The position numbers were made by a program, and so were the translations under genes. DNA of 54,087 bases from Psammoneis japonica (lineage: Eukaryota). A model generated the notes under the pieces. It ran no database searches. It was not told where the DNA came from and saw only the letters and a program-made list of their open reading frames with translations. Shown piece by piece: positions 7,406 to 54,087 of the stretch (the stretch's first letter is position 1; the number at the start of each line of letters is the position of its first letter). The stretch lies in assembly GCA_008632985.1 (NCBI GenBank), contig QPGO01000339.1, positions 1 through 54,087 of the forward strand, given 5' to 3'.

Positions 7406-7527
7406 GCTCACGCAGTTCTCACGTTGTTTGGAAATTAGTTTTGTTCTTCGTAATAGTTTGCTGAGTTTTGCATCAGAAGTTTTTACATTTTGTCTGTGGT
7501 CGTATCATATCATAGACTAGTACGGTA

Positions 7528-7889: not shown

Positions 7890-8149
7890 TACCGGGGTAG
7901 AAGATCGACCTGCTTGCTCGTGCGTGAGCGAGCGGCTTGATACCTGTTGACGTCATTGTGACGCAGAAAAGCAATGACGTCAATCGTAACGCAACCTTGC
8001 TTGCTTTTCAAACACCTAAACCGCAAAACCGCTGAATGATTCATCCTTCGTGACATAGGGCTACACTGTGATGTGCTGCTCTCTACTCTAGCTCTAGAGT
8101 ACGCCATTACTCCTTACCCTGACCAGTTCTGTAGAAACAGATTGCAGCC

Positions 8150-11256: not shown

Positions 11257-11540
11257 TGGCCGTACAGATGAGCTTTGAGCTTTTGAGCTTTTCGACTCGG
11301 CCGTCGAAAAGTGTCAGGGCAAGTTTGTGAATGATGGCGTCATTGCCGTTGCAGAAAATCACAAATCACACAAGCATGCGCGCGTTGAGCATTGAGAGCC
11401 GGCCGTTGAGCGAGCGAGCGCGGTGCGCGAGGCTGTCTGTCGGTCTGCCGTTTTTCGAAATCAAAAATTTATCATCTCAAAAATAAAAGCAAAGCGGTGC
11501 GGTGGGGCGTCTGTTGGGTCTGGATTTGCAGTGGTAATCG

Positions 11541-14500
11541 ATGGAGGCCCTTGCCTTACAGCTCTGCTCGGGCAGATTGGATGCAGCATCATCGGCAGAA
11601 CGAGCAAAATTGGTACAAGAAGCGTCTCAGCTTGTCATTGACGACCCAGACGCAAGACGCGATCTTTCAGCGTTGGACGGTGAGTAGTCGTCGACGTAGA
11701 ATCTGTACTGATGTCTACGTTGAAACGCGCGGCTTTTTTTGTGCTCACAAATTTCGCTTGTCGCCCACAAAATTATTTTCTTGGCTTTCTTCAGATGTTT
11801 CATGTACTTCGCTGCATTGTTACAAAAGAACCACAAAGCTTTATTGTTTAGCCTTGTCATCTTCTCTAGACGAGGAGGAATCTGCTGTTGCAAAACTTTG
11901 TCAGGGCCTATGTAGACTGCTCGGCAAATCACAGAATGCGTCTCTAGTGGAAGCATGCAGCAAGTCCTTATCTGGGGCACCCTCTGCACTAAACTCGGCA
12001 CTGTTTAACGTGGCATCCGAAGGAGATGAAGTGTCATTTGCTCCTGCGCTAGCTTTAGGATCAGCACTTGATGACTCGAGACGAGATGAATGGGTCAAGA
12101 TTTTCCTCAAACGCTGTCTCTCTAGTTCTTTTGCTACCGCCACTCAAATCGCCCTCTTGGGACTATTTGTTTCGAGTATTAATCAAGAAGAATTCAATAA
12201 GATTGTATCCGTTATGGGTTTAAAGTTGAAGGCAAATCCAGAAAAAGCGCTTGAAACGGTGAATGCTATTTTTGAAGGACTACCTCGGAGTATTGATGTT
12301 GAAGAAGCCTTGGAGGGAGAGGTTCAGTTGCTGGCAACGATTATGAAACAACTAAAGTCAACAAAGTCTCATGTCCGAGTATTGGCCCAAGGCGCGTTGA
12401 CTCGAATCGCGCTCGTAAACAAGTCGTCCAAGGCATTGAGCAAGATTGTAACAGCATTGGCCGAATCGCTAGCTTCCACTTTGCCACAGCCCGACCAAAG
12501 AATATGTGCCTACCTTGCCTTGAAAGACATTTCCAATGAGCTTGATATCGATACCAAGGTAGATACTGATGCTGTGACTGCGGTGGTTACAGGTGTTTCT
12601 ACTGCACTTGGTAAGGAGAGCAAAACTGCGGGCGCAACTGCGCGTACCGATGGCTTGGATGCGTTCCTTCGGTGGATGGTAGTGGCCAAGAGAAGCAGTG
12701 CTACCAAGGGATACGAAACTGGGTTGGAGTTTCTGAGAAAACCTGTAATAAAGGCCAATGCGACTGACGTTGTTTTCTTCTTGGGGGCGATGGTACAACA
12801 AGTGAATCCCGACATCTTGGCATCAATTGCACTGGACCTTCATAAGGATCCCAAGTTTGAAAAAGGATTACAAAGTATTGTCGAGTCCTCTGCAAAGAAG
12901 CATAGCACTTCTACGGTGGTGCCACCTGTGGAAGGATTGATTGCGGTTTATCTTGCATTGGTTCATGCATTTGCGTCCTCATCGCTCGAGTTGAAGCCAG
13001 TATTCTCAAAGGCGTTGTCAGCCGGATCTCTGTCTCGTTCCAAAACCTCATTTGTCTACGGCAAGGCTATGACAGATGCCGTTTCCAAGAATGCAATTGT
13101 CAGTCAGATGCTTTCTCGGGTCATTGCGCTCTACACAAAACTACTGGCAAAGGCTGACGGGAAATCTACGGCGTTGGTTGGATTGCTAGAGGGTAGCCAA
13201 ACGGATGTCACGGCGGCCACTCATTCTCTCGCTGCTTGTATTGGCCATCCCTCGACTGACAAAGAGCGCCCGGCAACTTTAGCAGTTCTATCGTCGGTTC
13301 AAACTGTGTTGACATATGAGCCACTTGCAGCAGACGGACTAGTGGAAGCCCTCATCAGCCTGGTGAATGACGCGTCACTGGCGCACGAGGCGCTAGCATC
13401 GTCCTTGAACGAAACGAGAGAAGCCCGAGAATCGTTTTCTCCGATTATTGAATCTTATACCAAGCTTCCAATCAAGGGACAATGTAGTGCAACAGCATCG
13501 CACTTTGGACTTGACCCGAACGCAGTGCGACGAGCGGCTCTGCTGGTGGCCTCGCGTGCATCAAACATGCAGTTCGTAGCAAAAGCATTGGTTTTGACTC
13601 ATGTTGGTTCAACGTTGAAAGGCATTGGAAAGCAGCGAAGTTCGTTGGTATCTAGTACGTTGCAATTGATTCGGGAAGTCATCTTACCATCGATAGGCAA
13701 AGCAGAGGCCCGAGAGGCGATGATGTCTCACGTGGCAGATTTTGTATCAAACTGCGCGTGTTCCTACTACATGAAGGATGAAACAAACGTGGAATCTGGG
13801 AATTCTCACGCTGCCGTAAGCGTCGCATTACACCAGGGAGCCCTTAGTCTTATCACAACTCTTGGTGGCATTGCAAGCAACTTTGACCCTGAGTATGACG
13901 ATCCCGACGATGAAGATTTGAAGCCGTTTGTGCTTGCTCGATCGTTGTGTACTGCAGAGTTTTCGTCACAATTTACTTTCAACCTGAAGGTGGCTCTCAA
14001 GGATGTGGAGGCTATTACGGAGAAGGAAATCGACCTATACCGAAGTTCATCGTTGGTTCCATATTATGAGGGAGGTGAAACGACTGAGAAGGACAGTTCA
14101 TCGGACAGAATCCTGAATGCAGACAAGAAAAGGGCCGGTGGCAAGAGCCGAAGAAACAAGGGCGATTTTGGATCTGGGTTCGAAGACGAAGAGTGGGAGA
14201 GACAAATGAAAAAGGAGCTCGCGGCGAAAAAGAAGAAGGAGAATACCGTGGCAGGCGGCGCAGCAGAAAAAGCTTTGTCTCCCGAAGACAAGAAGCTCGT
14301 TAAAGAGCAGAATGCGGAACGAAAACGACTTGACGTAATTCTGGGCGGAAGTTATTCCAGAGTGTTGTCGGCTATCCAGTGCCTCTGCTTGTCCGACATT
14401 GAAGTCGGCAACACCTGTCTACCAATACTGAGCGAAGCCGTCATGGAATGCGCGTTATCGGATTCCCCAGCCCTTCGAATCTTAACGAAGCTCAAAGATA

Positions 14501-17500
14501 AGAGCCTCCAGACCCTGTCAACTTTGGCATCCTGTGTTTACGAGATAGACGAGGTTCATGCGCCAACAATAGCACGAGCGCTTATAGTTGGCTGCAATCG
14601 TAAGGAGAGAATAGTGGTTTCGGCCCTACCTTCCCCATGCCCATCGGCTGCGTGTGTGATGTATGAGATGGAGGAGTTCGACGACAAGCTTTCAGGACCT
14701 TCATTTTTCTTCCTTTTTCCTATAGTGCGGGCATCGTTGACGGGGCCACGTACCCCTCCAGGGTGCGAATCAGCTCTTCGAATACTCAGTCGACACACAA
14801 CAATGCTGAGCGGACCGGAGAAGGACCCGTCAGTGCTTAAACTGCGACGAGATATGGCGATCACCGTATTGGAGTTAATGTCGCACGACCGGTCACAAAC
14901 ATTCGTGGATCCGACCCCAACTGAAGTTCTCATTGCATGTTTCACCACAGACGCTGCGGATGAGTCTAGCTCTCAGCCTCTGAACACCGCGGAACTTGCG
15001 CCTCTGCTAGATGAGCGTGGTGCACTAGGAACCAAAAATTGTCGTGTCGGATCGATGCTTGTGCTAGAAGCAATTGCTAGGGATCACCCAAAAGTCGTTA
15101 AGAATAATCCTCTGGTCGAGAACAGGGTTTGGACGAACTGCTTCGACGACAGAGAAAGTATCCGAAAGGCAGCGCGGAGCACGTGGCTAGTGGCAAATGG
15201 TCAGGATGTAGGGGAGTACGACGGTACAGATTCTGCGTTGCCTCCCCCGTCGCCGTTGTATGCTGTTCCTTTGTTGCCATTGTTCAGCCATTCCGAGCAA
15301 AGCATAGCTGACGCTGCAGCGAAGGCGTATGCATGTGCCATGGGAATGCATGCATCAAGTGTTGAAAGGAATATCAATAAGTTGTGCGTCACTTACATTG
15401 ATTCTTTCCCAACAGATTTTGGCGACCGACGTACGGATGCATCTTCATCTGTGCCGCAACCAAAACAACTCAAGTCAGCTCCCGCTCCAAAGAAGTCCGC
15501 GAAGATTTCCACTGGGTTGCCGAAAAAGAAGCCTCAAAAGAAGTCGGCTTTAGCCGTTGCCGGAATCGGGAAACCGCGGACAACCGCAAGATCAGGAACT
15601 AAGAAGCGGTCGGTGAATTCGGCCCTGCTCGCGCCTAAGAAGGAGCGTACCCTTGATCAAGAAGCTTTAGCGAGCCAATTCTTGACATCGGGGAAGAAGA
15701 CTGATGCCGAAAAAGACAGCACCGAAAAAGTAGCGGTTCGTCTTGGGGTACTACGGGCAATCACCGCACTTACCGAGAGCTCCGCGGAAATCGAATTGAA
15801 CATTGAGACTGTGAAGCTGCTTACTGGATTCTTGATGGCTTACGGCCTAGCGGACGGGGATAACGTGGTTCAAGGGACTGCTAGAAACGCACTGAGAGAT
15901 GTTGTCGCGTCGAACGGTGGCTCCGACGATGCCATAGCGTTCCTACTGCCACATCTGGAGACTACTTTGAATACCGGTGTAGCCGACGAAACCTGTCTTG
16001 GCGATCTGCCACGAGACAAAGTCCTGCGGGATGTGGCAGCTGCTGACCGTCGGAAGGAAGGGGCGGTTGTTGCATTAGGGTCTGTAGCGCTGCATCTTAA
16101 GGGAGAAGGAAGTGAAGGTAAAATCGACAGTACTGTCGACATGCTCATAGCTGCCCTGCGAACGCCGAGTGAAGGCGTACAGTCTAGTGTTGCGGCATGT
16201 CTCGCCAAGCTGATGAAGAAGGGTCGCACTCAGGATCGGGTCGAAGAGCTGTTGTCTGCTCTAATGAAAGAATGTTTGCACGGCGATACTCTCGCTCTTC
16301 GAAGAGGTTCGGCGTACGGGATCTCTGCGGTCGTTAAAGGTAGCGGCATTGCGAGCCTCAAGAAATACGAAATTGTGAAACAGCTCGAGGAGGCGTGTTC
16401 TTCCGGTTCCACTAGTGCGAAGGAGGGAGCCTTGTTTGCGATTGAGTTACTGAGTGATCGACTCGGATTGCTCTTCGAGCCTTATGTTATTGTCCTTCTT
16501 CCAGCCTTGCTCAAAGCGTTCAGCGACAGTAGCGACCACGTTCGAAGTGCTGCTTCTCAAACAGCGGGTTTGATTATGAGCAAGTTGTCAGCCCACGGAG
16601 TCAAACTTGTTATGCCTGCTGTGCTTACAGCTTTTAACGATCCAGCTTGGCGAACAAAACAAGCGTCAATTCATATGCTGGGTAGTATGAGCCATATGGC
16701 ACCGAAACAACTAGCGAGTGCCCTGCCGAAAGTTGTTCCTAAGTTGACCGAGGCATTCAGTGACACTCACCCAAAGGTCAAGGCAAGCGCTGAAGAGGCG
16801 TTGGGAGAGATCAGCAAGGTCATAAAGAACCCTGAAATCTCATCAATTAGTCCTGTGCTTCTGAAAGCTTTGACCGACCCGTCAGATGGCACAGTGAAAG
16901 CGCTGGAGGCTCTCATTGAAACCGAATTTCTACATGCGATTGACGCTCCCAGTCTTGCACTTATCGTGCCAGTCTTGCACCGGGGACTACGAGATCGTGG
17001 TGCAAAGACAAAGCGATACGGGGCTCTCATTTCAGGGAATATTTGCACAATGATTGACGATCCCCGTGATTTCGTTCCCTACCTACCAATCTTGATTCCG
17101 GACTTAAAAGCTGTTCTTCTCGATCCCATACCAGACGTTAGGAGCACGTCAGCAAAAGCTCTTGGATCGTTGACCCGGGGACTGGGAGAGGATACGCTTT
17201 CCGACCTTAGACCTTGGCTCATTGAGACTTTGAGATCAGAGAACATTAGCTCTGCAGAGCGAAGTGGCGCTGGTCAGGGTCTTACTGAAGTATTGATTGC
17301 AGGAGGAGCTTCAGTGGTCGAAGAAGTGATGCTCGAGGAAATTTTGCCTCTGAGGAGTCACCCTCAAGCAAGCACTCGAGAGGGTGTACTCTGGGTTCTC
17401 ACATTCCTCCCATCCTCTCTCGGCCAGGCTTTCACCCCTCTTATCGACCCGTCGTTACCGGCATTGTTGGCAGGTTTGTCCGACGACAGTGAACCCGTTC

Positions 17501-20500
17501 GCGATGTTGCCATGCGAGCCGGTCGTGTTTTGATTCGAAGCCACGGCAAGGCCCATGTGGACAAGATTCTCCCGAGCTTGGAAGACGGCTTGGGTGATGA
17601 AGACTACCGAATTAGAGTTGCCTCTCTCACTCTGCTTGGCGATCTCCTGTCCATGATTGGAGGGACTACAGTCGTTAAAGGCGACGGAGATACCCAGGAT
17701 GATATTCGCAAGGCTGAACGAGCCCAGGCGCAGATTGCACTTGTTCTCGGAAACGAGACAAGAAAGAGGGTGCTGAGCGGATTGTATTTAGCTCGCTGCG
17801 ACACTGCAGCCGTTGTGCGTCAGAGTGCTGTTCAAGTGTGGAAAACTGTTGTCAGCGTCACCGCTCGCGCGCTCCGGGAAATTCTACCGGTTCTGGTTGG
17901 GCAAGTTGTTACAGCGCTCGCAAGTGGGCATCCAGAGAAAACGCAAGTCGCGGGGCGTTGCCTTGGCGATATAACTTTCAAACTTGGAGAATCGGTACTT
18001 CCCGAGATCATTCCCGTACTCCGAGATGCTTTGTACAATGGCGACGAGCACACGAGACGTGGTGTGTGCGTTGGATTATCTGAGGTTATCACCGGATCTT
18101 CAAAAGAAAACATCCTTCGCTTCTCCGAAATTATTGTGAAGGTTGTGAAAGATGCGCTTTGTGACGACGATGAAGGAGTGCGGGAGATGGCTGCATCATG
18201 TTTCCAAAGCCTCTACTCTGTCATCGGGAATAAGGCCATGGAAGAGATCGTCCCTTTGTTGCTGGTTGCACTTGAGGAAGATGATACAGGCGATGGTACT
18301 CGTGTTCGCGCGCTAAACGGTCTGACTGGAATCCTCAGTGTTCGAAGCAGGGAACTGCTACCTTACATCATTCCAAGGTTGATCAAGAGGCCTATTCCAA
18401 AGAATCACGCCGATGCACTTTCGAGCATAGCGTCTGTGACAGGTGGAACGATCCACATGCACTTCAACACCATCCTTCCTGCTATGATTGGGGAGCTCAG
18501 TGACATGTGCGGTGAAGAGCTCGACGAAGAAGAGCGTGAGCGTGAAGCAGCTATTCGAACGTGCTGTAGGTCACTCTGTAGCAACGTTGACGAAGGAGGT
18601 GTCAATTGGTTGGTCGGCGAAATAGCGGCGAAATGCGGTAGTGATAAGGACGAAGTGAGAATAGAGAGCTGCTGGATGCTTCAAGTTGTCGTGGAGGAGC
18701 GTAAGTGTCATGATGAAATTATCGATTCACGTGTTTGCTGTTTCGGATGATCGACAAAACTCGATTTCCCTATTGAGGCGTCAACCATATCATGATGTCC
18801 ATGAGGGGTTCTACAAATGAGATTTCTGCCTGACGAGAAGATGCAGTCTGTTGCGTATTTCTAGATGTCCGTCGAATCCTCTCACGCTTGTGAACTCTAC
18901 TTTTCATTGCGTACAGGTAAAGAGCAGCAAGATTTTTATGAGCAAATTCCAGTAATTTTGAGGGAATTGATCTATCGTTTTAATGACGATGTCCCGGCGG
19001 TCGTCAAGTCTGCCAACACAGCGTTTGGTGCTTTGTCCAAGAATGTTCCAGCAGAGGAGCTTGTAAAGCACATTGAATTTATCCGAAATCTTATCAACAG
19101 CATGGTTAGTGACGCGAGACGAAGGAAAGGCGGTGTCGGCGACGGCGAATTTCTACTCCCAGGCTTTAACATTCCAAAAGGTAAGAATGAATGGTTGGTT
19201 CATGCTCAAGGTGGCCGCAGCTTGTGCAACAACGTGATGACCAATTTTACTACGGTTTCCGACACCAGAATGGAGAAACATGATTAGTCTTTCTGATTGA
19301 GCACCATGCTTTTTTTGGCTTCGCTCCCCTTGTGTTTGATGAGTGTTTCTCGCGATCACTTATACTGCTTCGCGTTTTACTTTTGTTTTCAGGCTTGGAG
19401 CCTCTGTTACCCATATATCAACGCGGCATCCTTTACGGTAATGCAACAATCCGAGAGGCTTCTGCTGCTGGTCTAGGAGAATTGATCGCCCTCACGGATA
19501 GCAAATATTTGGCAGGACCTCTCATTATCAAAATGACGGGCCCGCTGTTACGTATTGTTGGAGATCGTAATCCACCAGAAGTCAAGATCGCCATCTTGAA
19601 AACACTTGGACAAATTCTGGTCAAGGGAGGTCCAGCTCTTCGCGCTTTTGTACCGCAGTTCCAAACCACCTTTGTCAAGGCTCTGTCTGATCCAGCTCGT
19701 CAAGTCCGCGTGGAAGCCATTCAAGCGCTGGCGTTGTTGATGCCCCTGTCGACGCGGGTTGATCCACTAGTCAAAGAACTCGTTTCTGGGTCACTCGGAA
19801 AGAGCAGCAGCGGTACAGGCGAAACTGCCGGGGTGGCTGCCGTGCAAACTGCAACGCTTGAGGCCCTCGCGGTGGTGCTAAAAGCGGGTGGGAAGAAAGT
19901 CAAACTACCAACTAGCATCCCCTCTGCGTTGGATGCAAGTAAGGAGCTCTTTTGCCACGAAGACGAGGGTGTGAGAGAAAGTGCTGCCAAAGTCATGGGC
20001 GCGGCTTGTGAGTTGTTGGACGTCGGTATTACGAATGACTTGATTCGAGACGAAATCCTCAAAGGCAAGGACGACCCTAGCGAGGTGCGTCACGGAAAGG
20101 CGTGTGCGTGCCGCCGAATTCTCGCTTCTTCTGCCGGGTCGAATATTGACGACAACGTCAGAGTTGACATGACGAAACTCATTGAATCATACATGAAGGA
20201 TGATAACAGCTCAGTGAAGGAGGCTGCTTTTGTCGCAATTGGTGCAGCAGTTGGATGTGCTCCAGATCCCAGTGCCGCTCTCCGAAAAGAGGAGCCCACA
20301 CTCTTGGATACAATGCAGGATACCCAGCAAAAAATGGACGTTCACCGTGCTTTGGCAAAAGGACTCTGCTCGGCCGTTCGACTTGCCGGTGGCGACGGTG
20401 TTGCGTTCCTCGGCAAGGCCCTTCTGGACGCATGTTTACAGATGGCAATGAGTGGTGCACAGCGCATTCAGTTCGCATACAACGATGTCTTGTGGCTGGC

Positions 20501-20630
20501 GCTTGATGTGGCCAATGGTGAATCAGGACTTGAAGCGTACGTTGAAATGGCTAATTTTGACAATTCGAAAGCAATGAAATCACTCTACACAAAGGTGTTG
20601 ACCCGTATCAAGCAAGTAGACGACGATTAG
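11541..20630 (+). CDS. GCN1: Translational activator GCN1 (HEAT-repeat eIF2-alpha kinase activator), 4 exons
   Basis: Conserved GCN1 segments FEPYVIVLLPALL, SAHGVKLVMP, WRTKQAS, DAPSLALIVP, ERSGAGQGLTEV and ITGPL-like MTGPLLRIVGDR. In-frame exons 11541-11679, 11870-18700, 18917-19180, 19393-20630. Confidence 0.95.
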
Positions 20631-32488: not shown

Positions 32489-33956
32489 TGTTTGATGGGT
32501 TTTCTTCCTTCGGAATGCTGATGGTTGATGGGTGATGGGTGTGTGTGACACATCTGTCGTTGGCAGATGATTTTCAAAACGAACACACGAAAAGATATAT
32601 TGATTTTTATTCATATCTGAAGCGTTTAATAATTCTTTTCTATCGGCCTTGAAGCACGAAGATAGAGGGGGTAGCCGTTTGTGTCCTTATCCGAAGATTC
32701 CATCTGACTGGGTGTGTGCGCACCGCTGCGGTTCTCCGCATTGTCCTTGTTGGTGTCTACGATGCCATGTCCTCATCCCATCTAATCTTCCTTGTTGTTT
32801 TGAGTCCATGAGAGCCACACCAAACATGCTCAGAACCATTACATTGCACGTTTTTCTTGTTCCCTCTTTTGGAAGGTGCAATGGCATGCCAGCTCTTCCA
32901 CCCACAGAGACACAGAGAAGCCACCCTGATTGAACAAAATCATGCCCCCCCAACAACAACGGCGGCAGAGCTTGCCAGCTCTTGTCAAATCCAGCGCACA
33001 GCAGGCTGAGACTTTCCAATGCAACAGAATCATTTCAAGCATTTGTTGGGACAGGTGACAATGACGTTGACAAGATTGGTGTCATGCACGCGCGGCTTCA
33101 GCAAGCAACGGCGGTGTGTGCGGTGAGCAAGAAACCTCTCTCCATGAGATGGCTGTCGCTCTCAGCAAAAAGTCAAAGGGGAGAACCACAGCAGTGGCAT
33201 TGACATCTGCTGGGAGTTGTGTGAGACACAGCTCAGGGCATGTGCACAGGCAGTGATGTGCTGCATCACAACACTGCAATGCACCGGCCTTGAAAGCTGA
33301 CAAAAATGACAGCCAAAGCTTGCAGCACCAAGGCGAGGGCCAAGATGGCATCAAACAACAAGGCAAGGCAAGCTCCATGAGAGCAAACAAAGCAGCTGCT
33401 TCATCAGAGGCCGCAACACAGTGTTGTTCACTTTCCTTTGGAAAATTTGGAACATTCACTTTGACAATTGTGTGCAAAAATTAGCGATGGTTCATTTGTT
33501 TTTTGATGGTCAATTTACATTTGTTGTCACCGTTTTATGTTGGCAATTGTTGCCGTTTTATTTTGCTTTTAAGTCACCAAAGAATTTCAACAAGCCCTTC
33601 ATTGTTGAACAACGCTTTTTGTTTTGATTAATTTTTCACATGTTTGTGGAATCGTCAACTTTGACAGTGCTTTTCAACAGCTTCACCGCAGCCTTGCGTC
33701 ACCACAGACAATGGTGTTTCTCCCTCGCCCCAGTCGGCCACGCAATTACCCAGAGGAACACTGTCTCATCATTTCCACCTGCACGCTCCAGTTGTCCAGT
33801 CAATGGGCCCCCACCTGCATTTTGGCACCTTTTCTACATGCGCAGTTCTCTGCCCATTTCACAACAGCACGCCCTCTCCCCAAAATGCTTTTGACGAGAG
33901 GGTGTGCTGTTGTGAATCCTGTGCATTCTACGTGAATCGGCAACTGACTGTTGGCC

Positions 33957-36900
33957 ATGGCGTCTGACGACTTTACCCCGTCTGACGACGAGGTCGACCC
34001 TGACCCTTCTTTCCAAATTACCGAGGACTTAAATTTTGATGAAACAGAACATTTCACCAACGGTTTGGGATTCGAATTGTTCCAACCCAAGCTCAAAAGC
34101 ACAATTGCAACGCGTGCCTCGAAAAAGAAGTTTTTGGAGTCGACGAATTGGACCCCCTCTCCAGAATTCCTCGCTCTTCCCTTCCTTTGTCACAAGCCGA
34201 AGTTGCGCCGTGTTCCTCATGTTGCCGAAGTTATCCGCACCAACACATTGTAAGGAAAACCCTTGGCTATCCCGACATTTGGTCCTGCATCATGACTCGT
34301 GGTTGGTCCATTGAGAAATCCCGCCGTGCGAAAGGCGAATGTGTCCTGTGACACAAAAATCTCAAGGAGGCTCTGCATTTCTCCAAAATGTCCGGAGAGA
34401 CAGAAAAAGAACAGCACAACCGTGTGCTTCTTCACCACAACATCCAGGCGATGGTAGAATTTGTTTGTACGATCATTGCCGGAGACAACCTGAACGATCC
34501 TTTATCCGGCAAGCCTTGTTTCCAATTTTTGCGGTGCAAAAGTCTCCAAAGTTTGATCAACGATCGAGCCCAAGACCTCCACAGTGCCTTTTTGTCACTG
34601 ACATCGTCATGCGTTACGTTCAGTGCAAGCCCAAGGACATGGACCATTGGTTCTTGAAGATTTTCCGTCACGTCAAAACCCAAAAGGAATGGCGCCTCTT
34701 TGTCAACAGCTTTCTGGTTGTGTGCGACACTGACGATCCTGGTGCCCAGGCGGATGAGATCAAGGGGTTCCTTGACGACTCAACCGGTGACACAAAGAAC
34801 ACGGTGACAATGCAAGGCGATTCCCTTGCACGCCGTGAGGCTCATGAAGAAAAAATCAATTCCATGTTGAATCACGAATTTGGGAAGCGTTGTCCCAAGG
34901 AGCAAATTGGCATCCGACCTGGGTGCAGCAAGCAGCTCACAATGCTCCGTTGCAGAATGCGTGATCAGAGGGCCGACTGCTTGGAAGACGACAACAAACG
35001 AATCTACAACTCTAAAACCAAACGCAAAATTGGGAGGACCCGCAAGGATGGCACCTGTTTGTACGATGGTGAGAACCCCCCCCACCTCCCGCCTTCTACC
35101 TTTCTGCCTGCATCTGTCGTCTCAATGTCTCTTCTCACACCCCATGATTGTTCACGACCCACCAGAGCCTTCCTTGACCGTTCCCAACAAGAAGGCCAAG
35201 CCTGCATCTGCAAAAACAAGCCCCTCCATCGCTTTCTGGCAATGTTCCGTCGTCTAGGGAGGCGCACCGGACTCTCACCGCCGACCTTCCGTCACTCTCA
35301 GAAATCATGGAAAACCTAAAACCCACTTCTACCTCCAAAGGTCCTTCGTCCAAACCTCATTCCTCTCCTCCTTCTGTTTCAGCTAATCCTCCCGCGGTTA
35401 CGTCTCCTCCTGGTGACCCCAACGACATGTCGTGGCTGGACCTGTCCACACTCCGCGATCGCTTTGACCCGTCCAAGTGTCGACCCGTCACCACCGAGGA
35501 AGTTTCTTCTCATTTGTCACACCTGCACATCATTGACAAAGCCACCGACACTGATCGGGTGCTTCATCATTCTGCCGCCGACTTTTGCCTGGCGGACAAC
35601 TTGCGGGAAAACTGGCACACGTTCTCAAACAATGCGCCATTGTGTGATTCCGCCACCGCATCTCGTGTTCGAACCGAGCACCCTCCTGACCTCGATCACT
35701 TCTCCGAGGAACTCTCCGTCGCCCGTCAGGCTAACTCTCTGTACAAGGGGCACTTCGGGTGCCTTTGTGCATGCATTCCCACCCTTCTTCCATTTATTTT
35801 GTTGAAGGGAGAGTCCGATTTGACACGTGACGGACCGGTTGCAGTTCAAAACGGCGAAGCACGCAGGACAAAGTTCGGTTGTGCTGGGAGAGCGCATCAC
35901 CCCAAGATGCCTGGTTCTGCCAAACTGGCTAAACCAAAGGCTGCTTACGGACTTGATGTCTTTGAGTTTGATGATAACTTTGACGCCAACGAGACCTCCA
36001 AAATCAAGGCGATGGCAGCCGACATCCTTGACTCGATTCAGCTTTGCGAAAATGAGGTAGAGCTGAAAAAACTGAGCAATCCACCACCATTTAACTGGTC
36101 ACTTCGGTGCGAGGAATGCTCGCAAAAGTTGGGCAACGAAATGGGCTGTCTCTTCTTCAAACGTGAGGACGTCACCATGCAGGGATTGTGCATTTCCCGG
36201 GGTCAAGTCTGTGATGGTCACTGTGACAATAAAAACTGCACCTGGCGTCGATGCAGGAAGACAGCTGCCGGTTGCTTCTTTGTTGTGGATGCCTTTGGCG
36301 ACATCTGGTCCTTCAAGGTTGTTGCCAACAGCAGAAGGACCATTGGTGAATGCTGCGACGACCAGTGCGACATGAAGCCTGTGCTTGCTCGCATGCACCA
36401 CAATCGAGCTCAGCTTGATTTTGCACTTAAAGACTTGGACTTGCAGCACGATGGTCCCACCCACCCCGATGTGTCGCTTTCCAGCATTACATTCAAGCAT
36501 CTTTCCCTTGACGACAACAGGCCGTGGGACAATGTTCTTGTTGGTGGAGGTGGCGACTCTTCACATGTCGAGGTGTGCATGGATCGACTCAAGTTCCCGA
36601 CTTTCCCAGTCAGGGACTTCCACTCATCTGCCCCAGTCACAGTGATCTGCCGTTTCAAGAACATTGTGTGCCGATCGGGTCCCAACCCAAAACGAGTCAT
36701 TCATTTGGCGATCCATGCTGGTTGTCCCACCGGATGTCACCGATTTTACTGCGTGGGGGACAAGTGTCTTCCCAACCTTTGTTGCGAAGGTGCTGACCCA
36801 TTTGTCAACTTTGCCGATTGCTTGCAGAACACATTTGGGGTGCTGTGCGGTGACCCACAGGTGGGTGGGATCAGCCCTGCCAATTTGACGTACAAAGAAA

Positions 36901-38920
36901 TTTTGCGATGTATTTCTAGACCCTTGTTGCGTCGGAACCGCGAATGACCCAATTGACGCAATGGTGGAAGAAATCTATGCTGCACTTCTCTGGATAAACA
37001 ACAATGTTGACACCAACGAGTTCTGTCCCAACTTAATGGAACAATGGTGCAAGGCAGCGTGTGATGCTTGGGCAGACCGGGGAGCAGATTTCAGTGAGAT
37101 TCGTCTCATGTTGGTGCTGCAATGTCTGGTGCTGGCAGGTGTCGCAGTGAAAGACCATCCAAGACTCAATGACATTGTCTGTCCTGTCTTCAATTCGGGA
37201 GCTGCCGCACAACTGGGGCACATTCAACCGGAAGAAAGGCCGCTCATGCACCAAAGGACATCATCCGAAACAGGAACCGAAGAGCACGGTTGGAACGGAA
37301 CCGAGCACAAACTTTGTGAGAATTCAGACAATCGCTGCACCCACACATTTTTGATTGTGTTTTCCGAGGACCCTGTTCAGGACAAGACCTGTTTACCTTC
37401 TCTCCCTCTGGGCAGCGTCTCCACAAGCCACATGGGCCAACCGAGTGTGAAATTTTGGAGTGTGTTGACGACGACCCCAACCTTTGCCAATCACAAGACA
37501 ATGCTGAATCGCGCACATTTGTGTGTGAATCAGCCATGCAATCAGACGGCACCAGTGTTTTCTCTGCTGTTGATGGACTGCCCGCGGACAATGAACTTAG
37601 CTCATTGTCATCAGAGGAGTCTAGACTTGCCGCAAACAATGAACTTAGCTCATTGTCTTTGGAGGATTGTCGATTTGACGCGGAGAAAGAACCAAGTTCA
37701 TTGGATTCGGAGGAGTCTCGACTTGCCGCAGACAATGAACTCAGCTCATTGTCTTTTGAGGAGTCTGTGTTGTCGGAGGACTGCTCGTGTCCTGATTCTG
37801 ACTGCCGCGTTCCAATTGTCACGGCAGATTCTGTTGTCCTTCAGTCGCAGGATCAAGAATCCGATGAAGATGATGCAAGTGACGCAACCGCGTGCGATCG
37901 ACCCAAGCCACCGGTCCTTTTACAAGCACAAGATTTTGACATGGACAAACATGTGAATGCTGTTTTTGAGCAGGTCTGTCAACAGCCGAAGAACTCCTGC
38001 AATTGTTTGGTGTCATGTTTTTCACAAATCTCAACCCGCAACATGACTCCTCCTGTGCTTTTGTTTCACATCATCATGTCATCCCCAGACAAGACGGAGG
38101 TGCAAATGTCCTGTGGCTTTGCATGACGAGGCCCGTCATGGCCGGAAACCTGACGTTGGATGAGACATGTTCGGACCGTGGTGTGGAGGCCATCTGATCC
38201 ACTCAGCAAAGAAGAGATGAGGCAAGGTGTCAAGTCGTTCAGGATCTCCACACGAACTCAAATGTTCGTGCATGCACTGTGTCCCCACAGGATGGTGGCC
38301 CCGCTTGTCACTTGAATTGCAACACATCCGCCAAGAATTTTGCCCAAAGGGTCAAGACGCGGTTTGGAACAGTGATTGATTTTAAGAAAAGTGGCTTTGT
38401 TCAGATCTGCATGGACCACCACTGGATGCAAAAAGGGGAGTGGCTGCAGTCGACACTCGGAAATCGCTTCTTTGGCGAAAACCCAAGGGATGTGATGGAA
38501 ACGTTGTTTCATCCAAAGCTCCAGAGGTGCCGCATCACAATCCCATGCACCATTTGGTCACTGGCCCAAACCGTGTGCAATTTGGACAACATTTTGGAAT
38601 GCGCACTGGTGCAGGCCATGACACAGGACATGGCATGTGAAGTGGTGACGCTCCACCAGGCTTCCCAGGAGATTGTGGAGGAGCACTGTGTGGATTGGCT
38701 GGGGAAACCATCTGACCAGGAAGCATTGCATTTGGGAGTCACGGAACAGGAAATTCGGGAAATGCTGCCACATGAAGAAGCCAATTCAGTCCCAGAGTTC
38801 CCACGAGAGTGTGGAAATTACAACCCGAAGGAACTGTTCCCGCTCCTGTCCTTCGAGAGGAGAATTCCCGATTTCAGGGATGAGTCAAGGAAATGGCTCA
38901 GGAGTTGTTTGCCACACTAG
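33957..38920 (+). pseudogene. Long disrupted ORF(s) of unknown function inside the TpA-depleted block
   Basis: Chain of same-strand, protein-like ORF pieces from ATG 33957 (MASDDFTPSDD) through 35307-36947 (546 aa, 4 Tyr), 36961-37956, 37455-38126 and 38279-38920, broken by frameshifts and TGA stops. Confidence 0.5.
37587..37766 (+). repeat. 48-bp tandem repeat, ~3.7 copies (DNELSSLSxEESRLAA)
   Basis: Units start at 37587, 37635, 37683 and 37731, e.g. gacaatgaacttagctcattgtcatcagaggagtctagacttgccgca. Confidence 0.9.
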
Positions 38921-39341
38921 TTCCCAGTCGGATTTGTGAGCAGATTGTTGAAGCAGGTGAGTGAACGTTGTCTCTGTTGTCCTTGTCGTCCCAATTAAGT
39001 TTTCTGCTGCTGTTGTTGGATGCTCACATGCTTTTCACCTGCTTTTGTGAAACAGCTCTCCCCATGTGTTTCTACGGTCTTGAACTGCCCAAACATGCTT
39101 TGTCCCATCATGTGTCTCAGCAATGATGTTTCACAATGATGTTTTGAACAAAATGCTTTTGCAAGCAATTTACACTGTGGAAGTGGATTTCGAAATTGCA
39201 GCAAAAGAGAGGTTTGAACTGGAATTCGCAATGATTCAAAATTTTCACAAGATCACAAGGAGTGGTAAAATGGACAAATCATGTGTGCATTGAAAGATTT
39301 GGCCAATTCTCAATTATGTTGCATTTGAGAAAAAGGAACCA

Positions 39342-40660
39342 TTGATGGCAACTGTGAGATTTTTGGCATTAAAGAGAGGTTTGAAAATTTTCCAACGGCA
39401 AAAATGGCTGGGACACAAGGCATGGAGCCACCCACAATTGGCGACAATGGCAAGGAAGAAGAAGAAAGGAACTGCAGGGGTGGCTGGAGATCAACCAACA
39501 AGCCCAAGGCCAGCCGCAGCATTGGTGCGGGTGGGAGCCACTGGGGATCACCAGTCTGTGAAGAGAGAGGCAGAAGAGGTGGCGCGGAAGGAACTTTTCC
39601 CAAAGGCAAAATTCCTTGTCAAGGTGGACATGGCAAGCAGTGGCAAAGTGTCGCGGCTCATCAGGAAAAAGACAGCCGGAGGAAATTGCAGCAAGCGAGA
39701 CTGGGTGGGAGCGTGGGAAGACTGGGCAAAGAAGTGCGTCATGTGTGCAATTAACGCGAAAAGGAGCACGGTCACTCAGGCGATCACAAGAACAATGCAA
39801 CGGCTGGCAAGTGTTTTGTGGTGCATGGCATGTTGAGTGTAGTTGTGCTTGACACAACTGCACCTTTGTTTGTTGAAGTCGTGTTGACAGAGAATGAAGC
39901 AGAGGAGGTGCACAGTCAGAAGCCGGCAGCAAAGGGTGGAGGTGGGAAGAAGAGCAAGAAGAGGAAGAAGAACGATCGTGCGGAAGAGGAAGAGCCGTTC
40001 CTGGCGACTTGGGGGGAGGAGACTGTGACAACGATTGTGGAGGACAAGCGCAAGAACAAGGAAGCACATGCTTGGTTCTATGAAAACATCCTGAAATTCA
40101 CAAAGAGCACCACCACATGGAGAAGGAAGGTGGAGTCGGGTGAGACAAAGGCAGCCGGTCTGGCTACAGCGAGCGACGAGGCTCTGGCACTGTTGACATT
40201 GGAAAACCACTGGAAGAGTTGGGAGCACAAGGCACATCATGACAAGACTGTTGCAGCAAGGGGGGGTTCGGACGAAGAAGATGAGGAAGAGTTGGAACCA
40301 ACACCCAAGTGCACGGACCCGTCAAGGCAACGAGACTCGTGGAAAGATGCAGGGATCAAGCGATTCAACGAACTGCTTGCGGCAGCAAAGAAAGACAGGT
40401 TGAGTGAGGAGGGCATGCAGTTCGACACATGGTGCAGCAAAGGCAAGAAAAGGAAGAGTGACGAAAGAGGCAAGGGATCAAAAAGAAAGAAAAAGCAGGT
40501 GGAGGAGGCAAGAACACAGGCAACGATGGAGCTTTCAAGTGACGACGAGGAGAAGGAGGAAGAGGCAACGGACGAGAACAGAGGATGCAAGGACAGCAAC
40601 AAAGGGGAGGAGGACAGTGATGTGGAAAGCGACACGAATGTAGATGCAGATGGTGAGTGA
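39342..40660 (+). pseudogene. Transposon-associated-type acidic/basic protein remnant
   Basis: Motif string ATASDEALALLTLENHW...PKCT...SWKDAGIKRFNEL with charged low-complexity tails. 1 Tyr in the 280-aa ORF. It resembles a repeated diatom ORF family I recall with ENYW and PKYT at these positions (not verified). Confidence 0.5.
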
Positions 40661-42086
40661 GCTGTGGCATGAAAAGGCAGCGGAGGCTTTTGTCAGTGTG
40701 ATGATGGAAAGAGAACAAGCAATGTGGCAGGCTTCAATGTCAACAGTTGTGAGGTTTAACAAAGCATTGGAGGGATCATTGTTTTGTGATCTAACCTTTT
40801 GTTTGACAACCAGTGTGTGCAATGGAACCAGCGCATGCAACAGAAGGTTCTCTTGACCAATGTAACTCAATGATTGGCGCCAAATTGTTGTCAACCAAAA
40901 CATTGTGAACATTGCTTTCAAAAGGTAAAAAGTGGCGGAATTCTGACAGTTGGGGGAGGGGTCCCACAGGCAAAGGAGGGGTCCCATGGTGAAAAATGTA
41001 ATGCTGTGATGTGCAATAAAAAATCACGTTCTACACAACTCACTCAATGTGAAACTGTTGCATTTGCACCTGCAACACAGTGTTGAAAATTGCCTGTGAG
41101 AAGGGTGGTCAGGATCACTGTGTTTCGCGCTCTGATGTTGCAACAGCAACAGCTGCAAATGACGTGTTTCTCTGTGTGCACCACAAATGCTGGGGGAAAT
41201 TTGGAAGCAACCCGGTGCTTTTTTGTCATGTTTTTTGCAAAGAGCAGCAGCAACAAGCAAAACCCAGCTCGCCCACTCTCTCTGCCACCGCCTGACTGCT
41301 GGCACTCTTGTGTTGTGCTTCAATGATGCAACAGTGTTGTGGTTTGACAACGCAAGTTTACAAAAGAGCATTGGGCAGCATGAGATTCTTGTTTTGTTGG
41401 CGCGTGCAGCAGTCGTGGTGACGCCCGAGCTGGCCAGGCAGGCACTTTTTTCTCTGTGCTGGTCACTGGGGATGGGGGTGACCATGATGGCAGGGGGACA
41501 TTTGTTGTTGACCCCTCATCTTGTGAATGGTGCCAGCTTTCCTTTGCCTCACTTTTCGAACAGCAAACTTTCCTTTGCTTCCTGAGCAATTTCAAAAATG
41601 AAAAAGCAATGTTGTGGCGTGGGTGTGACCGCATTCGCATTCTGACAGCATTGTGCGAAAGTTGAGTTGGATCCTCGTCATCGTGCACATTGCAAATATA
41701 CAATGATGGGAGAGTAGATAAGGCATCTATGACCAAAGAGATGTCTGAAACTTTCTAAGGCATTTATCAACAGGTCATTATGTCTAAATTTTCAGTTGCT
41801 TTTCCATGTGTGACATTTCTGAAAGTCATGTGACCTTCACGTTTATGCCCTCGCGTGATGGTCAGTGTCCGCAACATCGAGCAATGGCATTTTGCATCTG
41901 ACTGTCTCATCCACCACGCAAACCACGTTGAACTCCTGCTGCCAGCACATTCATTGCTCATCCACCACTTTGCAACACTTCCTGTCCGGTTCTTTCCGAC
42001 TCATACTGTTCCATATTGCACGAAAGCAGAGCGATTGAAAGCGCGGATCGTAGTCCCAAGGTCTCTTTGCCATCAAGTTTGTCAAG

Positions 42087-50200: not shown

Positions 50201-50560
50201 TGGGGACATAAGAATGATTTTAGCCAGTGGCTAAAATTTTGTGTAGACACATACCAGGTTTGTACGCTGGTATATTTTCTACACAGAAAATATTTACTTT
50301 CCATTTTACAGATACTATAAATGTCATATCTGTTACGGTTTGCTGCTAACTATAACGTTCGTTAATATAAAACATTCAGCTTTTAAGCGTTTAAAAATAA
50401 ATACAAAAACAAAAAACTACAAATAATAGTACATATGTATATAAAAGAAAACAATGGGGTGGCGTTAAAAGGCGTTATCATTTTAAATATATCGCATACC
50501 AGGAGAAATGCGTAGAATTCTACAGGAGGTTTTTAGCCACTGGCTAAATTTTTATTCGGT
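50201..50560. mobile_element. Second copy of the MITE, inverted relative to 7528-7889, with the last ~8 bp of the right TIR missing
   Basis: TA|tggggacataagaatgattttagccagtggctaaaattttgtgtagacacataccagg... aligns along its length to the reverse complement of 7528-7889. It ends ...ggctaaatttttattcggta without tgtcccca. Confidence 0.9.
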
Positions 50561-51494
50561 AACCTTGAAATAAGGTACAAAACTACACGACATACAGAAA
50601 TGTCTCGTTCGCACCCACACATCATCCTTTGACTTCTTTGCAATTCACCACCCTTGCGATCCGTTCTGTCACCTGCCTCTGGTCAACACATGTGTGGCAA
50701 TTCCAATTTTTGCATTTGTCACATCCATTCTCTGCGCATTGTGCACGCTGTTTGAGTTTTTTTTTGTCTGGCCTCACAAGCAGTCCCGCTGTCTCCTTTT
50801 TTGGTGTCTGGGTTTGGCGGGCCAAAGAAGAGCCATCTGGTGCAGTTTTGCAGACCAGTGCAGGCATGATTTTTTGGCAGTTCGCACAGCCACCATTGTG
50901 ACTTTTGGCCATGATGCTCCTGTCATTGTGGTGACAGTTCTTCCCCTGTCTTCCACCGCGCTGTCCTTCCTGCCGACCGCAGCCGACAGAGCCCTCCCTG
51001 GTTGCTTTCTCTGCTGTGGCACAGCAGGGGCAGGGGCAAGAAAGTGAAAAAGTGGATGTTTTGCACACAGCCACAGATTTTGCACAGTTGAAAACTCAGA
51101 AATGAGCTCACGAAACCAGAACAATGTCTCTTTCGCTGGCACGTGTTTTGCACCATCAGAGCTTGCATTGCAGTGATCCAGACCACCTTTCTCATGGTCA
51201 TTTTTTTAATCTGTTGCAGCACAAAATTTTGCTGTTTCAAACCTTGATGGTCATGCAGCTGGCAACAACATGTCAACTGTGACAGATGAACATTTTTGTG
51301 CTGTGGGATCAGACCCCCCCTGCCTCCCCATCAGGAAAACATGCTTCGCTGTGAAACAGGGACATGTTTTCCCTGTGAGAGTGCCCACCCTCTGTCCCTG
51401 CAAAACCTGTAAATTGGAATCATTTGTGTTGCACCACAAACATTCCATTTTGTTATTTGCATTTAAATCAAATGACGCTGATGGAGACAACACC

Positions 51495-52020
51495 CCAGAG
51501 TTTGCAGCAGCAGCTGCAGCTCGCTTTCTTTTGAAGTGCCGCTGCTGGCAGCCACCTTGTTCATTGCCAAAAAAGTGCAGGGTGCATTGTGAGAGCACAA
51601 TGAGGATGAACTGACACTGCCAACAGGAACAGCACAACATGGGCTTGCTGGTGCATCATCCAGTGCTGCTGATTCTGGAGCAGGCGAGTTTGTAGCATGA
51701 GCTGCTGTTGCATGATTTGAAGTGCCGCTGCTCCACTCCACCTCATTCATTGCCAAAAAGAGCAGAACACGTTGTGAGAGCACAACACAGATGAACCAAC
51801 ACAACCCACAGGAATGGCAACATGGACTTGCCAGTGCATCCAACGATGCTGATTCTGGAGCAGGTGAGTTTGCAGCAGAAGTGCTGTTGCTCTGATCCAC
51901 CTCATTCATTGCCGAAAAGCACAGAGCACATTGTGAGAGTGCAACATGGATGAACTAACATGAACGGCAACACACACTTGCCGGTGCATTGGTGCATCTG
52001 GCATTGCTGATTCCGGAGCA
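51495..52020. repeat. Degenerate tandem repeat, ~3 units of ~160-186 bp
   Basis: Recurring ttcattgcc(a/g)aaaa...ttgtgagag...gatgaac...gctgatt(c/t)ggagca; anchors near 51560, 51746 and 51905. Confidence 0.85.
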
Positions 52021-52128
52021 ATGTAGACACCGGTGTGCGGTGCAAGACATCAAGCACCCAGCTCCACCCCCCTGCAACTCAAAGAAAACACAGAAAGAAA
52101 GCATGTGAGCAAGCAAAAAACATCTTAA

Positions 52129-52690
52129 GTGCCACAGAACGAACTTGCTGGAATGGCCATGAGAACAAGCACCACCTGCATGTGCACCACACTGTGCAAG
52201 GCACTGCATGAACAACAAAGTCATGTGGAAATGACTGGGTTCACCCTGCACCTCCCATGCTGTGGATGGTTCATCGATGACATGTTTAGAGCATGGACCA
52301 GAAACAGTGGAGAGACTTGGCAAGCCTTTAAAAATGAGCTTGACAACTCAGGCAACCTCCAATGGGTTGCCTCCCCACTCTCTGCCTCTGCAGTTTTTCT
52401 GGATCTGGACAAAAATTGGAAAAGACAGATGTGATGCAAGTGAATGCATCAAAAACCAATGAAGCTCTTTTTGTGCATGCCTTTTTCGAAGAGTGTCACA
52501 TGTGGCAAAGAACTTTTCATGCGTGTGATTCTGAGAGCTGCAGGAACAAGCACCGCCTGCAGTCTTTCTGGATCTGGGTGTGTGGAAATTGGAGAAGACG
52601 GGTGCATTGTCAGCAAATGCATCAAAAACCAATGAACCTCTTTTTGCACATGCCTTGTTTGAAGAGTGTCATTTGTGGCAACTTGTGATG
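52129..52690 (+). mobile_element. Decayed Penelope-like retroelement reverse transcriptase fragment with a duplicated C-terminal piece
   Basis: GMAMRTSTTCMCTTLC (GxAMG..Y..LY), CCGWFIDDMF (YY.RFIDD; FIDD at 52270-52281), AVFLDL, and HQKPM(K/N)LFL(C/H)MP twice, matching the PLE thumb motif YQKPxNLxLYIP. Confidence 0.8.
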
Positions 52691-52914
52691 ATTTTGGATG
52701 CAAAACTCTGACATGTGCGATTGTGCCAACACTGTAGAAAAGTGAGCTTGTGACGTGCATGCACACAAGAACGACATGCGCCAGCAGCTCAGCATTCTGG
52801 ATGCGGCAGATTCATGACAGCACACTCGCGATCACAAAACTCAAGCGGTGCCTGAATCAAAACCTGTCTTGACCAACCAGAAGGACAGCAGGTTTCACCA
52901 TGCATTGAGCTGCT

Positions 52915-53110
52915 GTCATCGGCCAGTGGGGTGAAGTTTTTTACCACCACCATGGCTGGTTGTTGATTTGCAGATTTGCAACCAAATGTGGAATCCACAT
53001 GAATCATGACAGCACACACTCTCACTTTTTGACTTTTGGGGAGAGGGTGCACCATTGTGAAGCATGCAGAAAATTGTGCATGTGAAAAAAATGCTGAAAA
53101 TGCCATGGAC
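52915..53110 (-). repeat. Diverged inverted homolog of 33810-33990 (upstream region plus start of the long ORF)
   Basis: HAQFSACFTMVHPLPK..CAV..VDST..AM..NFTPLADD here versus HAQFSAHFTTARPLPK..CAV..VHST..AM..DFTPSDD at 33838-33990. Confidence 0.8.
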
Positions 53111-54087
53111 CAAGGGGCTGCAAAAATCTGGGAAGCATGGAGAGGAGTTGAAAGTGGAGGGTGGGTCATGGTGTGCATGAAGCAGACTGCACACGTGCAA
53201 ACACACGCATGTGAGTTGAGGAGGGCCAAAGTGGAAGCCAAGTTCAAATTGATGACCATCAAAAGGAAACCAAACTGTGCATCACAAAATGCAGATGTCA
53301 ATCCCAACCAAATTGAGCATTGCGCACATTTGATTGAAGCTTGTGCAAGAAAAGCTGATGAGACATCAGACCAAATGCAAAAAACAACTGCAATTTGTTG
53401 AGCACTGTTGCCGGCAGTTTTCAAATTTTGCTTGTTAACAATTTTGACAAGGCACATCAAAAAATTTACAAAGGGAAGTGGAAACCACTGCATTGGGGCA
53501 TCTGATGACACTGACAAGACCTGCCATGCTGCAGCACACATTCAGATTCTCCAATGCACTGGGCACCTTTGGCACTGACAACAAAACTTCCATTTGGTCT
53601 TGCCCAACTTTGGCAGATGGCTGCAGATTTTTGTGGTTGCCAACTTGGGAAGAGATGAACCATGCTGGAGCCCAAAGGCCAAGATGCAGGGGTGAGGAGG
53701 TGATGTCCAGCCAAGATGCAGTGAGTTGCACGTGGGAGCGATGATGCCAACAGCTCTTGCTCTTTGTCCAATGAGGCACCAGCTGAACAGTGGGCAGAAA
53801 AGGTGGCACCTGGGCACAATGGCCAAGGAGGATGCTGCTGCTCTGCCAAAAACTGCAGCAAGAGTCACAAAAGGAGCTTTGTTTCTTCTCAACAGACCAA
53901 GTTCTAAGAGCATCAACATTGCCAATTATTTTGGACATGGTGGTGAACCAAGTTGTGGAGTGGGCAATGTGAAATGGTGCAAATTTGTCTTGGAGAGTGA
54001 GCAGATGATGACACTGGCTTCCCCAATGTTGCTCTGTGTAACTTCAAAGGCTGGAACAAAGACAGACTTGAAAATTTTTCAACGTTC

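Follow-up and report, generated by a model that had tools for sequence, protein, structure and literature searches.

We analyzed a stretch of 54,087 nucleotides from Psammoneis japonica (GenBank assembly GCA_008632985.1, contig QPGO01000339.1, positions 1 to 54,087 of the forward strand; the window, below, means this whole stretch) and looked into an array of three tandem units near its end, in which one aligned dinucleotide reads TG, CA, and TA in successive units. Two blocks of the window are strongly depleted in TA and, to different degrees, in CG, and the array lies in the second of them, inside a dispersed repeat of high copy number. The rest of the window is gene-dense eukaryotic DNA with long uninterrupted frames, and the Pfam matches in the window comprise GCN1, an ABCA-type transporter, a short-chain dehydrogenase, DEAD helicases, and SNARE. 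The features on which the analysis centers are as follows.

33000..41690: block 1, TA-erased, CG partly kept (TA-free run begins at 32841)
50594..54087: block 2, TA- and CG-erased, open at the window end, includes the array
51154..53555: high-copy dispersed repeat, ~2.4 kb, holds both tandem arrays (from contig depth in run X1)
51495..51683: tandem unit 1, 189 bp (MAFFT alignment; nhmmer E 4e-58), TG at 51612
51684..51863: tandem unit 2, 180 bp (MAFFT alignment; nhmmer E 2e-58), CA at 51797 and TA at 51693
51864..52022: tandem unit 3, 159 bp (MAFFT; nhmmer E 5e-45), TA at 51956 in the context CTAA
52380..52725: second, unrelated tandem pair, cores 52388-52508 and 52557-52681, spacing ~170 bp (repeat finding and alignment)

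The three units are arranged head-to-tail over 51495-52022, unit 3 being shorter than units 1 and 2 by ~23 + 9 bp, and an nhmmer profile built from them recovered each at E ≤5e-45 and no further copy in the window (next match, E 0.28). Tandem Repeats Finder did not call the array at a minimum score of 30, because the copies are only ~72% alike. Between neighboring units the nucleotide identity is 71.6%, versus 84.5% when the letters are reduced to purine and pyrimidine. In BLAST searches with this recoding, E-values are invalid and short matches are noise; we used only matches of at least 70 columns, and true pairs appeared only at ~83% or more. A reading made earlier from the sequence only had claimed that one aligned site occurs in three states, and we indeed found gatgaac-TG-aca at 51612, gatgaac-CA-aca at 51797, and gatgaac-TA-aca at 51956. 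The alternations that it listed elsewhere in the array are present as well: gtttgTAgca at 51693 versus gtttgCAgca at 51505 and 51873, gagagCAcaa at 51596 and 51781 versus gagagTGcaa at 51940, and aagTGcagggTGcattg in unit 1 versus aagCAcagagCAcattg in unit 3, together with two cases of CG versus TG (caggCGag at 51685 and caggTGag at 51865; attcCGgagc at 52014 and attcTGgagc at 51676 and 51856).

We also considered a protein-coding tandem repeat and ruled it out. The indels that separate the units (1, 2, 5, 8, 9, and 23 bp) break the frame, there is no Pfam match at E ≤0.001 in 23 frames, and a 148-amino-acid (aa) frame spanning the units had no homologue (0/71 candidates at E ≤0.001) in a protein collection from which the window's own genes were absent (best match, 40% identity), so that copies from the source organism are unlikely to be there.

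We then examined how the units differ. The three-way alignment has 150 ungapped columns, 45 of which vary, 35 by transitions only and 10 with a transversion. Pyrimidine-purine (YR) steps are present in all three units at 36 sites, and the 15 that vary do so solely among TA, TG, CA, and CG; all 10 transversion columns fall outside YR steps. Counted by dinucleotide context, transitions are in excess in YR steps (25/72 YR-step columns versus 10/78 others; Fisher p = 0.0019). Against a null model in which the same numbers of transitions and transversions were placed at random (5000 simulations), sites with TG in one unit and CA in another were in large excess (10 versus 1.74 ± 1.18 expected, with 0/5000 simulations reaching 10), as were three-state YR sites (4 versus 1.15, reached in 93/5000 simulations). 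Control double swaps stayed at the null (observed versus expected: 2 versus 1.7 for purine-pyrimidine, 0 versus 1.2 for pyrimidine-pyrimidine, and 2 versus 1.7 for purine-purine steps). The second tandem pair behaved alike, with 4 TG-versus-CA sites where 0.55 were expected, a number reached in 2/5000 simulations.

CG and TA are self-complementary, so each decays to TG or to CA according to the strand that is struck, and independent decay of such a step in each unit therefore leaves TG in one unit and CA in another. This is what the excess of TG-versus-CA sites (10 versus 1.7) displays, and the proposal that the units mutated independently after duplication is thus supported. The simplest reading is that each TG/CA site began as CG or TA and then decayed separately per unit. 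The number of variable sites, 15 per 150 columns, matches the ordinary TA+CG density nearby (96.5/kb, which predicts 14.5), and no unusual ancestor is therefore required. As to the content of the 15 sites, 2 include TA, 7 include CG, and 6 show only TG and CA. Both TAs, 51956 (CTAA) and 51693 (GTAG), stand in contexts among the more persistent ones (see below). Site 51612/51797/51956 is the sole three-state site of the TA type in the array; the CG/TG/CA sites are 51630/51815/51965, 51649/51832/51982, and 51664/51844/52002, with a fourth at the unit junction (CA at 51497, CG at 51685, and TG at 51865), aligned by eye across a MAFFT gap. The conversion of CG is a familiar process, since deamination of 5-methylcytosine in methylated repeats turns CpG into TpG or CpA.

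The surroundings of the array are more telling for TA. Dinucleotide densities per kb in the window were as follows.

Outside the blocks: TA 39.8, CG 56.7, TG 73.7, CA 69.9, all YR 240.0 (TA+CG 96.5, TG+CA 143.6)
Block 1: TA 8.4, CG 40.0, TG 94.1, CA 92.5, all YR 235.1 (TA+CG 48.4, TG+CA 186.6)
Block 2: TA 4.9, CG 15.2, TG 115.9, CA 113.4, all YR 249.4 (TA+CG 20.1, TG+CA 229.3)

YR steps per kb are conserved, so that the lost TA and CG reappear as TG and CA: the loss of TA+CG is 48 and 76/kb in blocks 1 and 2, versus a gain of TG+CA of 43 and 86/kb. G+C is 0.48-0.50 throughout. Observed/expected ratios are 0.13 for TA and 0.65 for CG in block 1 and 0.07 and 0.27 in block 2, with TA at 0.58 outside the blocks. 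The 1-kb windows 33001-41001 have TA ratios of 0.07-0.28, and windows 51001-53001 have TA ratios of 0.06-0.09 with TG and CA at 1.65-2.08. Block 2 has a sharp left edge. Up to 50593 there is a TA roughly every 9 bp; the next follows only at 51207, after a TA-free run of 614 bp. Block 1 has a comparable run of 642 bp (32840-33482). In all six frames of both blocks, TAA and TAG have nearly gone and frames are open over ≥70-250 codons, a by-product of the missing stops; the false proteins that they encode would be rich in Cys and His and almost free of Tyr.

TA and CG did not disappear together. Between 34000 and 38000, TA is down to 10.2/kb with CG at 51.2/kb (39.8 and 56.7 outside), and the gain of TG+CA (28.4/kb) equals the loss of TA (29.6/kb). 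In the left flank of the repeat within block 2 (50594-51153), there are 0 TA and 30.4 CG/kb. Since TA was lost with CG kept in these two places, CpG decay alone cannot explain the blocks, and the data support two separable processes, TA loss and CG loss. A decayed repeat piece common to both blocks (33810-34010 in reverse complement versus 52900-53110) shows how much further block 2 has gone: it reads TG or CA at 12 sites where block 1 has CG (9) or TA (3), and the reverse was seen at 0 sites.

The direction of TA loss was set by a gene remnant in block 1.

34044..37484, + strand: frameshifted pseudogene of an uncharacterised eukaryotic protein family (homologue alignment, tblastn)

The 589-codon open frame at 35178-36947 matched 128 cluster representatives at E ≤1e-3 and 22 at E ≤1e-30, and the tblastn pieces across 34044-37484 lie in frames 3, 2, 1, 3, 1, and 3; these frame switches identify it as a frameshifted pseudogene. 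Pfam returned nothing relevant on 10 homologues, and the protein atlas gave no match at ≥0.9. At the 17 Tyr positions of the closest homologue (P0014, 53% identity), the pseudogene has 10 Cys, 2 His, 3 Tyr, and 2 Phe, and the Phe of P0014 is kept at 13/18 positions. Across 25 homologues, Tyr is kept at 2/12 majority-Tyr columns, with Cys at 6, and the other majority residues are kept much better (Phe 10/13, Trp 3/3, Cys 6/6, Leu 15/21, Arg 12/18, and Gly 18/24). A change from TAY to TGY or CAY is a change from TpA to TpG or CpA, so these true outgroups fix the direction of TA loss. The claim that TA loss and CG loss converge on TG/CA is thus backed by the surroundings (mass balance, the 34-38 kb region, the left flank, and the Tyr codons of the pseudogene) and not by the array itself. 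Just downstream of the pseudogene match is a 48-bp tandem array of ~4 units (37582-37766); inspection by eye showed a single CG/TG/CA/TT site and a single TA/TA/AA/CA site in it, too small a number for counting.

We then asked which TAs survive. Retention, that is, TA in the blocks relative to outside by flanking context, differed strongly between contexts (chi-square 64.3, 9 degrees of freedom, p = 2e-10), the ratios being approximate because the outside baseline is mostly coding DNA.

TTAA: retention 0.75
GTAA/TTAC: retention 0.35
CTAA/TTAG: retention 0.29
CTAC/GTAG: retention 0.21
ATAA/TTAT: retention 0.18
CTAG: retention 0.15
GTAC: retention 0.11
ATAG/CTAT: retention 0.06
ATAC/GTAT: retention 0.01
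ATAT: retention 0.00

These values would fit a roughly multiplicative per-strand model in which TAT is lost fastest, TAC and TAG at intermediate rates, and TAA is nearly spared; in the context count TAG behaves like TAC, and of the 17 TAs that survive in block 2, 14 form TAA on one strand or both. The dependence of CG retention on context was much weaker (CCGG 0.98, TCGA 0.37; chi-square p = 0.026).

The repeat that carries the array was delimited with contigs of a public run (X1), 1347 of which align at ≥80% likeness and point to several dozen copies or more. X1 was the one public run found to contain this DNA; two further runs come from the same sample, and no RNA run containing it was listed. 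Summed contig depth is 1000-9000 over 51154-53555 versus 49-60 in both flanks; loose contig ends mark the left limit at 51154, and a single-copy contig resumes at 53555. Differences between contigs and window are mostly transitions (A>G at 121 places, T>C at 121, C>T at 97, and G>A at 116, versus 5-24 places per type of transversion). Unit number varies within the family, some copies skipping 192 bp (51595 to 51788) or 349 bp (51530 to 51880). Searches of this region were negative: Pfam had no match at E ≤0.001 among 23 stop-to-stop frames (≥70 aa) in the repeat and block 2, Rfam recognized no RNA family in 51154-53555, and in neither block did Pfam or Rfam yield a match above cut-off. No further copies of the repeat came to light in metagenome scans or protein searches; a degenerate 22-letter pattern had 0 matches, and three metagenome loci matching an exact 21-letter stretch were dismissed as chance, as they are alike over 21-22 letters only and have ordinary composition. 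The best explanation of the array is that part of a non-coding, high-copy dispersed repeat was triplicated in tandem long ago.

Block 2 extends beyond this repeat at single-copy depth, by 560 bp on the left and at least 532 bp on the right. Near-identical contigs cover the flanks (50574-51183 and 53555-54036), each with 6 differences from the window. Among the 10 flank differences listed, 4 are CG/CA (50958, 51021, 51141, and 53674) and one is an adjacent TG-versus-CA pair (53978-53979), which suggests that CpG decay is still segregating in the block 2 flanks.

The ancestral state of site 51612/51797/51956 was approached by parsimony. A TA ancestor needs 2 steps, a TG or CA ancestor 3, and a CG ancestor 4, so the smallest number of steps favors TA, as the sequence-only reading had argued. 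Judging from the letters of the three units, this site quite probably began as TA. Combining prior frequencies (TA:CG 39.8:56.7) with a TA retention of 0.12-0.29 and a value of ~0.03 for a CG that decays and then acquires a secondary TA, we obtained a rough estimate that would favor a TA ancestor some three- to sixfold.

We consider it likely that the array is an old triplication in a silent block where two transition processes, each specific to its sequence context, have come close to completion on both strands. One would be the classical decay of methylated cytosine, converting CpG to TpG or CpA, with methylation presumed from the pattern. The other would convert TpA to TpG or CpA (A:T to G:C), fastest when T follows the A, more slowly with C or G, and hardly at all in TAA; it may proceed by DNA-directed adenine deamination or an equivalent reaction, for which an ADAT2/TadA-like deaminase is a candidate. 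Each copy would decay separately, and an occasional unit would still hold the original CG or TA. Targeting may follow chromatin state and not repeat homology, because TA is erased hundreds of bases into flanks of single-copy depth and the erasure stops within a few bases at 50594. The TG/CA excess, the conservation of YR steps, the separability of TA and CG loss, the direction of TA loss, and the sharp block edge are direct observations.

Several points weigh against this interpretation or its application to the array. The Tyr test sits in block 1, 14 kb from the array, and the array is a minor witness for TA, with TA at 2 of its variable sites, CG at 7, and TG/CA that can be assigned to neither at 6. 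Ordinary transitions occur at ~0.043 per site and unit (10/78 columns, three units), and by estimate ~4 new TAs would be expected from the 98 TG/CA cells of the array if none were erased again; 2 are present. At 51693 both other units read CA, so a single C>T in unit 2 explains this TA as well as two parallel losses would. Further, the TAs at 51454 and 52735, which are among the best-supported 40 of 597 differing places, read TG (17/17) or CA (19/19) in the other aligned contigs; either they are derived or the window's repeat copy branches outside all others, so that the survival of a TA does not by itself make it ancestral. The flanks of single-copy depth may be older repeats less than 80% alike. 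Finally, the 10 listed flank differences include no TA change, in sequence that has almost no TA left.

Some of these points speak directly for CpG decay as the only process, that is, for a repeat born CpG-rich and TA-poor in which C>T produced all TG/CA alternation and the TAs arose secondarily by G>A or C>T. The array, with its 7 CG-bearing versus 2 TA-bearing variable sites and its three or four CG/TG/CA sites, could be accommodated in this way, the ~4 secondary TAs estimated exceed the 2 seen, and the TAs private to the window at 51454 and 52735 speak for it too. It would, however, demand that the ancestral array contained CpG at 100/kb or more (56.7/kb is ordinary) and no TA, and it fails at 34-38 kb, where TA is at 10.2 and CG at 51.2/kb, as well as in the 560-bp flank with its 0 TA and 30.4 CG/kb. 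Nor can it turn Tyr into Cys or His at 12/17 pseudogene positions or produce a 75-fold context dependence of surviving TA, and we regard it as highly improbable. Function or structure might instead have kept TA and CG out of the blocks (through flexibility, protein binding, or overlapping frames), an account to which the unusually open six frames and the under-representation of TA outside the blocks (observed/expected, 0.58) lend some color. Those open frames come from the missing TAA/TAG stops, however, and match no protein family; between paralogous units the differences are just the TG/CA alternation expected of decay, conserved Tyr codons were destroyed in a gene that was also frameshifted, and the conserved number of YR steps is predicted by mutation and not by selection. 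We find such an intrinsic or selective origin extremely unlikely.

A-to-I editing of RNA with a 5'-U preference, by ADAR or an ADAT-derived enzyme, fixed by reverse transcription and reinsertion, would also yield changes at TpA. The array belongs to a many-copy family, and ADAR usually prefers U upstream of the edited A, according to the accessible part of a preprint on Bigelowiella natans (bioRxiv 10.64898/2026.01.13.699255). TA erasure, however, runs 560 bp and at least 532 bp past the repeat into sequence of single-copy depth and also affects a frameshifted pseudogene of cellular type; one strand taken alone is as enriched in TG as in CA (115.9 versus 113.4/kb), Pfam detected neither a reverse transcriptase nor any other element protein in the 23 frames of block 2, and the accessible text of the preprint places the B. 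natans changes in resident DNA during mutation accumulation. This route to the blocks is, in our judgment, very unlikely.

The closest parallel to the process that we consider likely is the one described in the same preprint (Mettrop et al., bioRxiv 10.64898/2026.01.13.699255), to whose accessible part all statements on B. natans here refer. In mutation-accumulation lines, hypermutation was almost only A>G and T>C, all at TpA, and fell in two regions of integrated viral DNA: A>G or T>C made up 20/20 changes in a virophage insert and 210/211 in a giant-virus insert, all of those on TpA. The rate was ~1000 times the genome baseline, in some lines only, and the genome contains clusters of 1-kb windows that are poor in TpA and rich in CpA+TpG, with transposon-type and unannotated genes. 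An ADAT2-like deaminase was proposed, which is the sole mechanistic proposal in print. As in B. natans, TpA turned into TpG or CpA on both strands here, within confined regions, leaving low TpA with high CpA+TpG. A>G/T>C at TpA is seen in the Tyr loss of the pseudogene and the mass balance at 34-38 kb, and confinement in the sharp edge at 50593/50594, the core formed by the high-copy repeat, and the pseudogene inside block 1. The blocks clear the composition cut-offs of that study (a Rho of ≤0.43 for TpA and of ≥1.52 for CpA+TpG) by a wide margin, with windows 34001 and 35001 below the enrichment cut-off (TG/CA 1.41/1.23 and 1.34/1.10).

The two cases also differ. Ours is a historical footprint only, whereas the B. 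natans changes were followed in mutation-accumulation lines; erasure is deeper here (TA observed/expected 0.07-0.13 versus 0.45 in a B. natans viral insert), and what was hit is a dispersed repeat, a pseudogene, and flanks, in place of viral inserts. CpG is erased here too, a term that is absent from that paper's main text, and the preference for the 3' neighbor (TAT > TAC and TAG >> TAA) visible here was not found in its accessible part. A literature search, covering titles and the beginnings of abstracts, found no description of TpA erasure in diatoms or other stramenopiles.

Two other systems were compared. With CpG decay, the blocks share the depletion of CG (observed/expected 0.27 in block 2), the TG/CA excess, the CG/TG/CA sites (three, and a fourth at the unit junction), and the TG-versus-CA alternation in paralogous copies. 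This process cannot remove TA, however, and no more than about half of the TG+CA that block 2 has gained can be put down to it; at 34-38 kb its share is close to zero. Repeat-induced point mutation (RIP) of Neurospora and other ascomycetes, as described in the accessible part of PMC2621366, likewise ruins repeats by dinucleotide-specific transitions and leaves a compositional footprint usable for indices. RIP converts CpA to TpA and raises TA and A+T, in contrast to the present blocks, where TA is at 7-13% of expectation and G+C is unchanged. We rejected RIP as the cause, as TA falls from 39.8 to 4.9-8.4/kb, CA rises, and G+C stays at 0.48-0.50.

Taken together with B. natans, the footprint could reflect a DNA-level, TpA-directed adenine mutator that marks whole chromatin domains with the preference TAT > TAC and TAG >> TAA, is guided by the domain, acts independently of CpG methylation decay, and would represent a widespread ancient eukaryotic defense. 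We advance this broader proposal tentatively and give it somewhat less than an even chance. Should TA erasure be real and the work of an enzyme, genome defense by point mutation would have a second, independent form besides fungal RIP, of opposite chemistry (A:T to G:C); so far, one preprint on a single unrelated alga has reported a TpA process. Such blocks lose all TAA and TAG stops and fill with long false frames that gene callers would annotate, and they become unrecognizable to nucleotide searches (84% purine/pyrimidine versus 72% nucleotide identity). Tyr-to-Cys change offers a simple diagnostic for dead genes within them, and the context fingerprint (TAA spared, TAT erased) might be compared with that of a candidate deaminase. 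As natural replicate experiments, tandem arrays and dispersed copies would allow the rate, context preference, and timing of both processes to be estimated; the array studied here is a further witness of the process, a weak one for the TA component alone.

Elsewhere in the window we observed a TA-rich element of ~360 bp whose terminal inverted repeats begin with GGGGACAT; its two copies, at 50202-50573 and 7528-7894 (minus strand), are 93% alike. The copy at 50202-50573 adjoins the edge of block 2, in sequence that is TA-dense up to 50593, yet it is unmutated. In run X1, a contig of 2604 nucleotides passes from 50201 straight to 50574 and thus is without the element. The element looks like a recent insertion, either present in one haplotype and absent from another or differing between near-identical copies of the region. 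Lastly, a GCN1-like HEAT-repeat protein is encoded in two frames on the + strand, 11497-18750 and 19332-20630 (2417 and 432 aa), which lie ~580 bp apart, presumably split by one intron or a gap in the frame.

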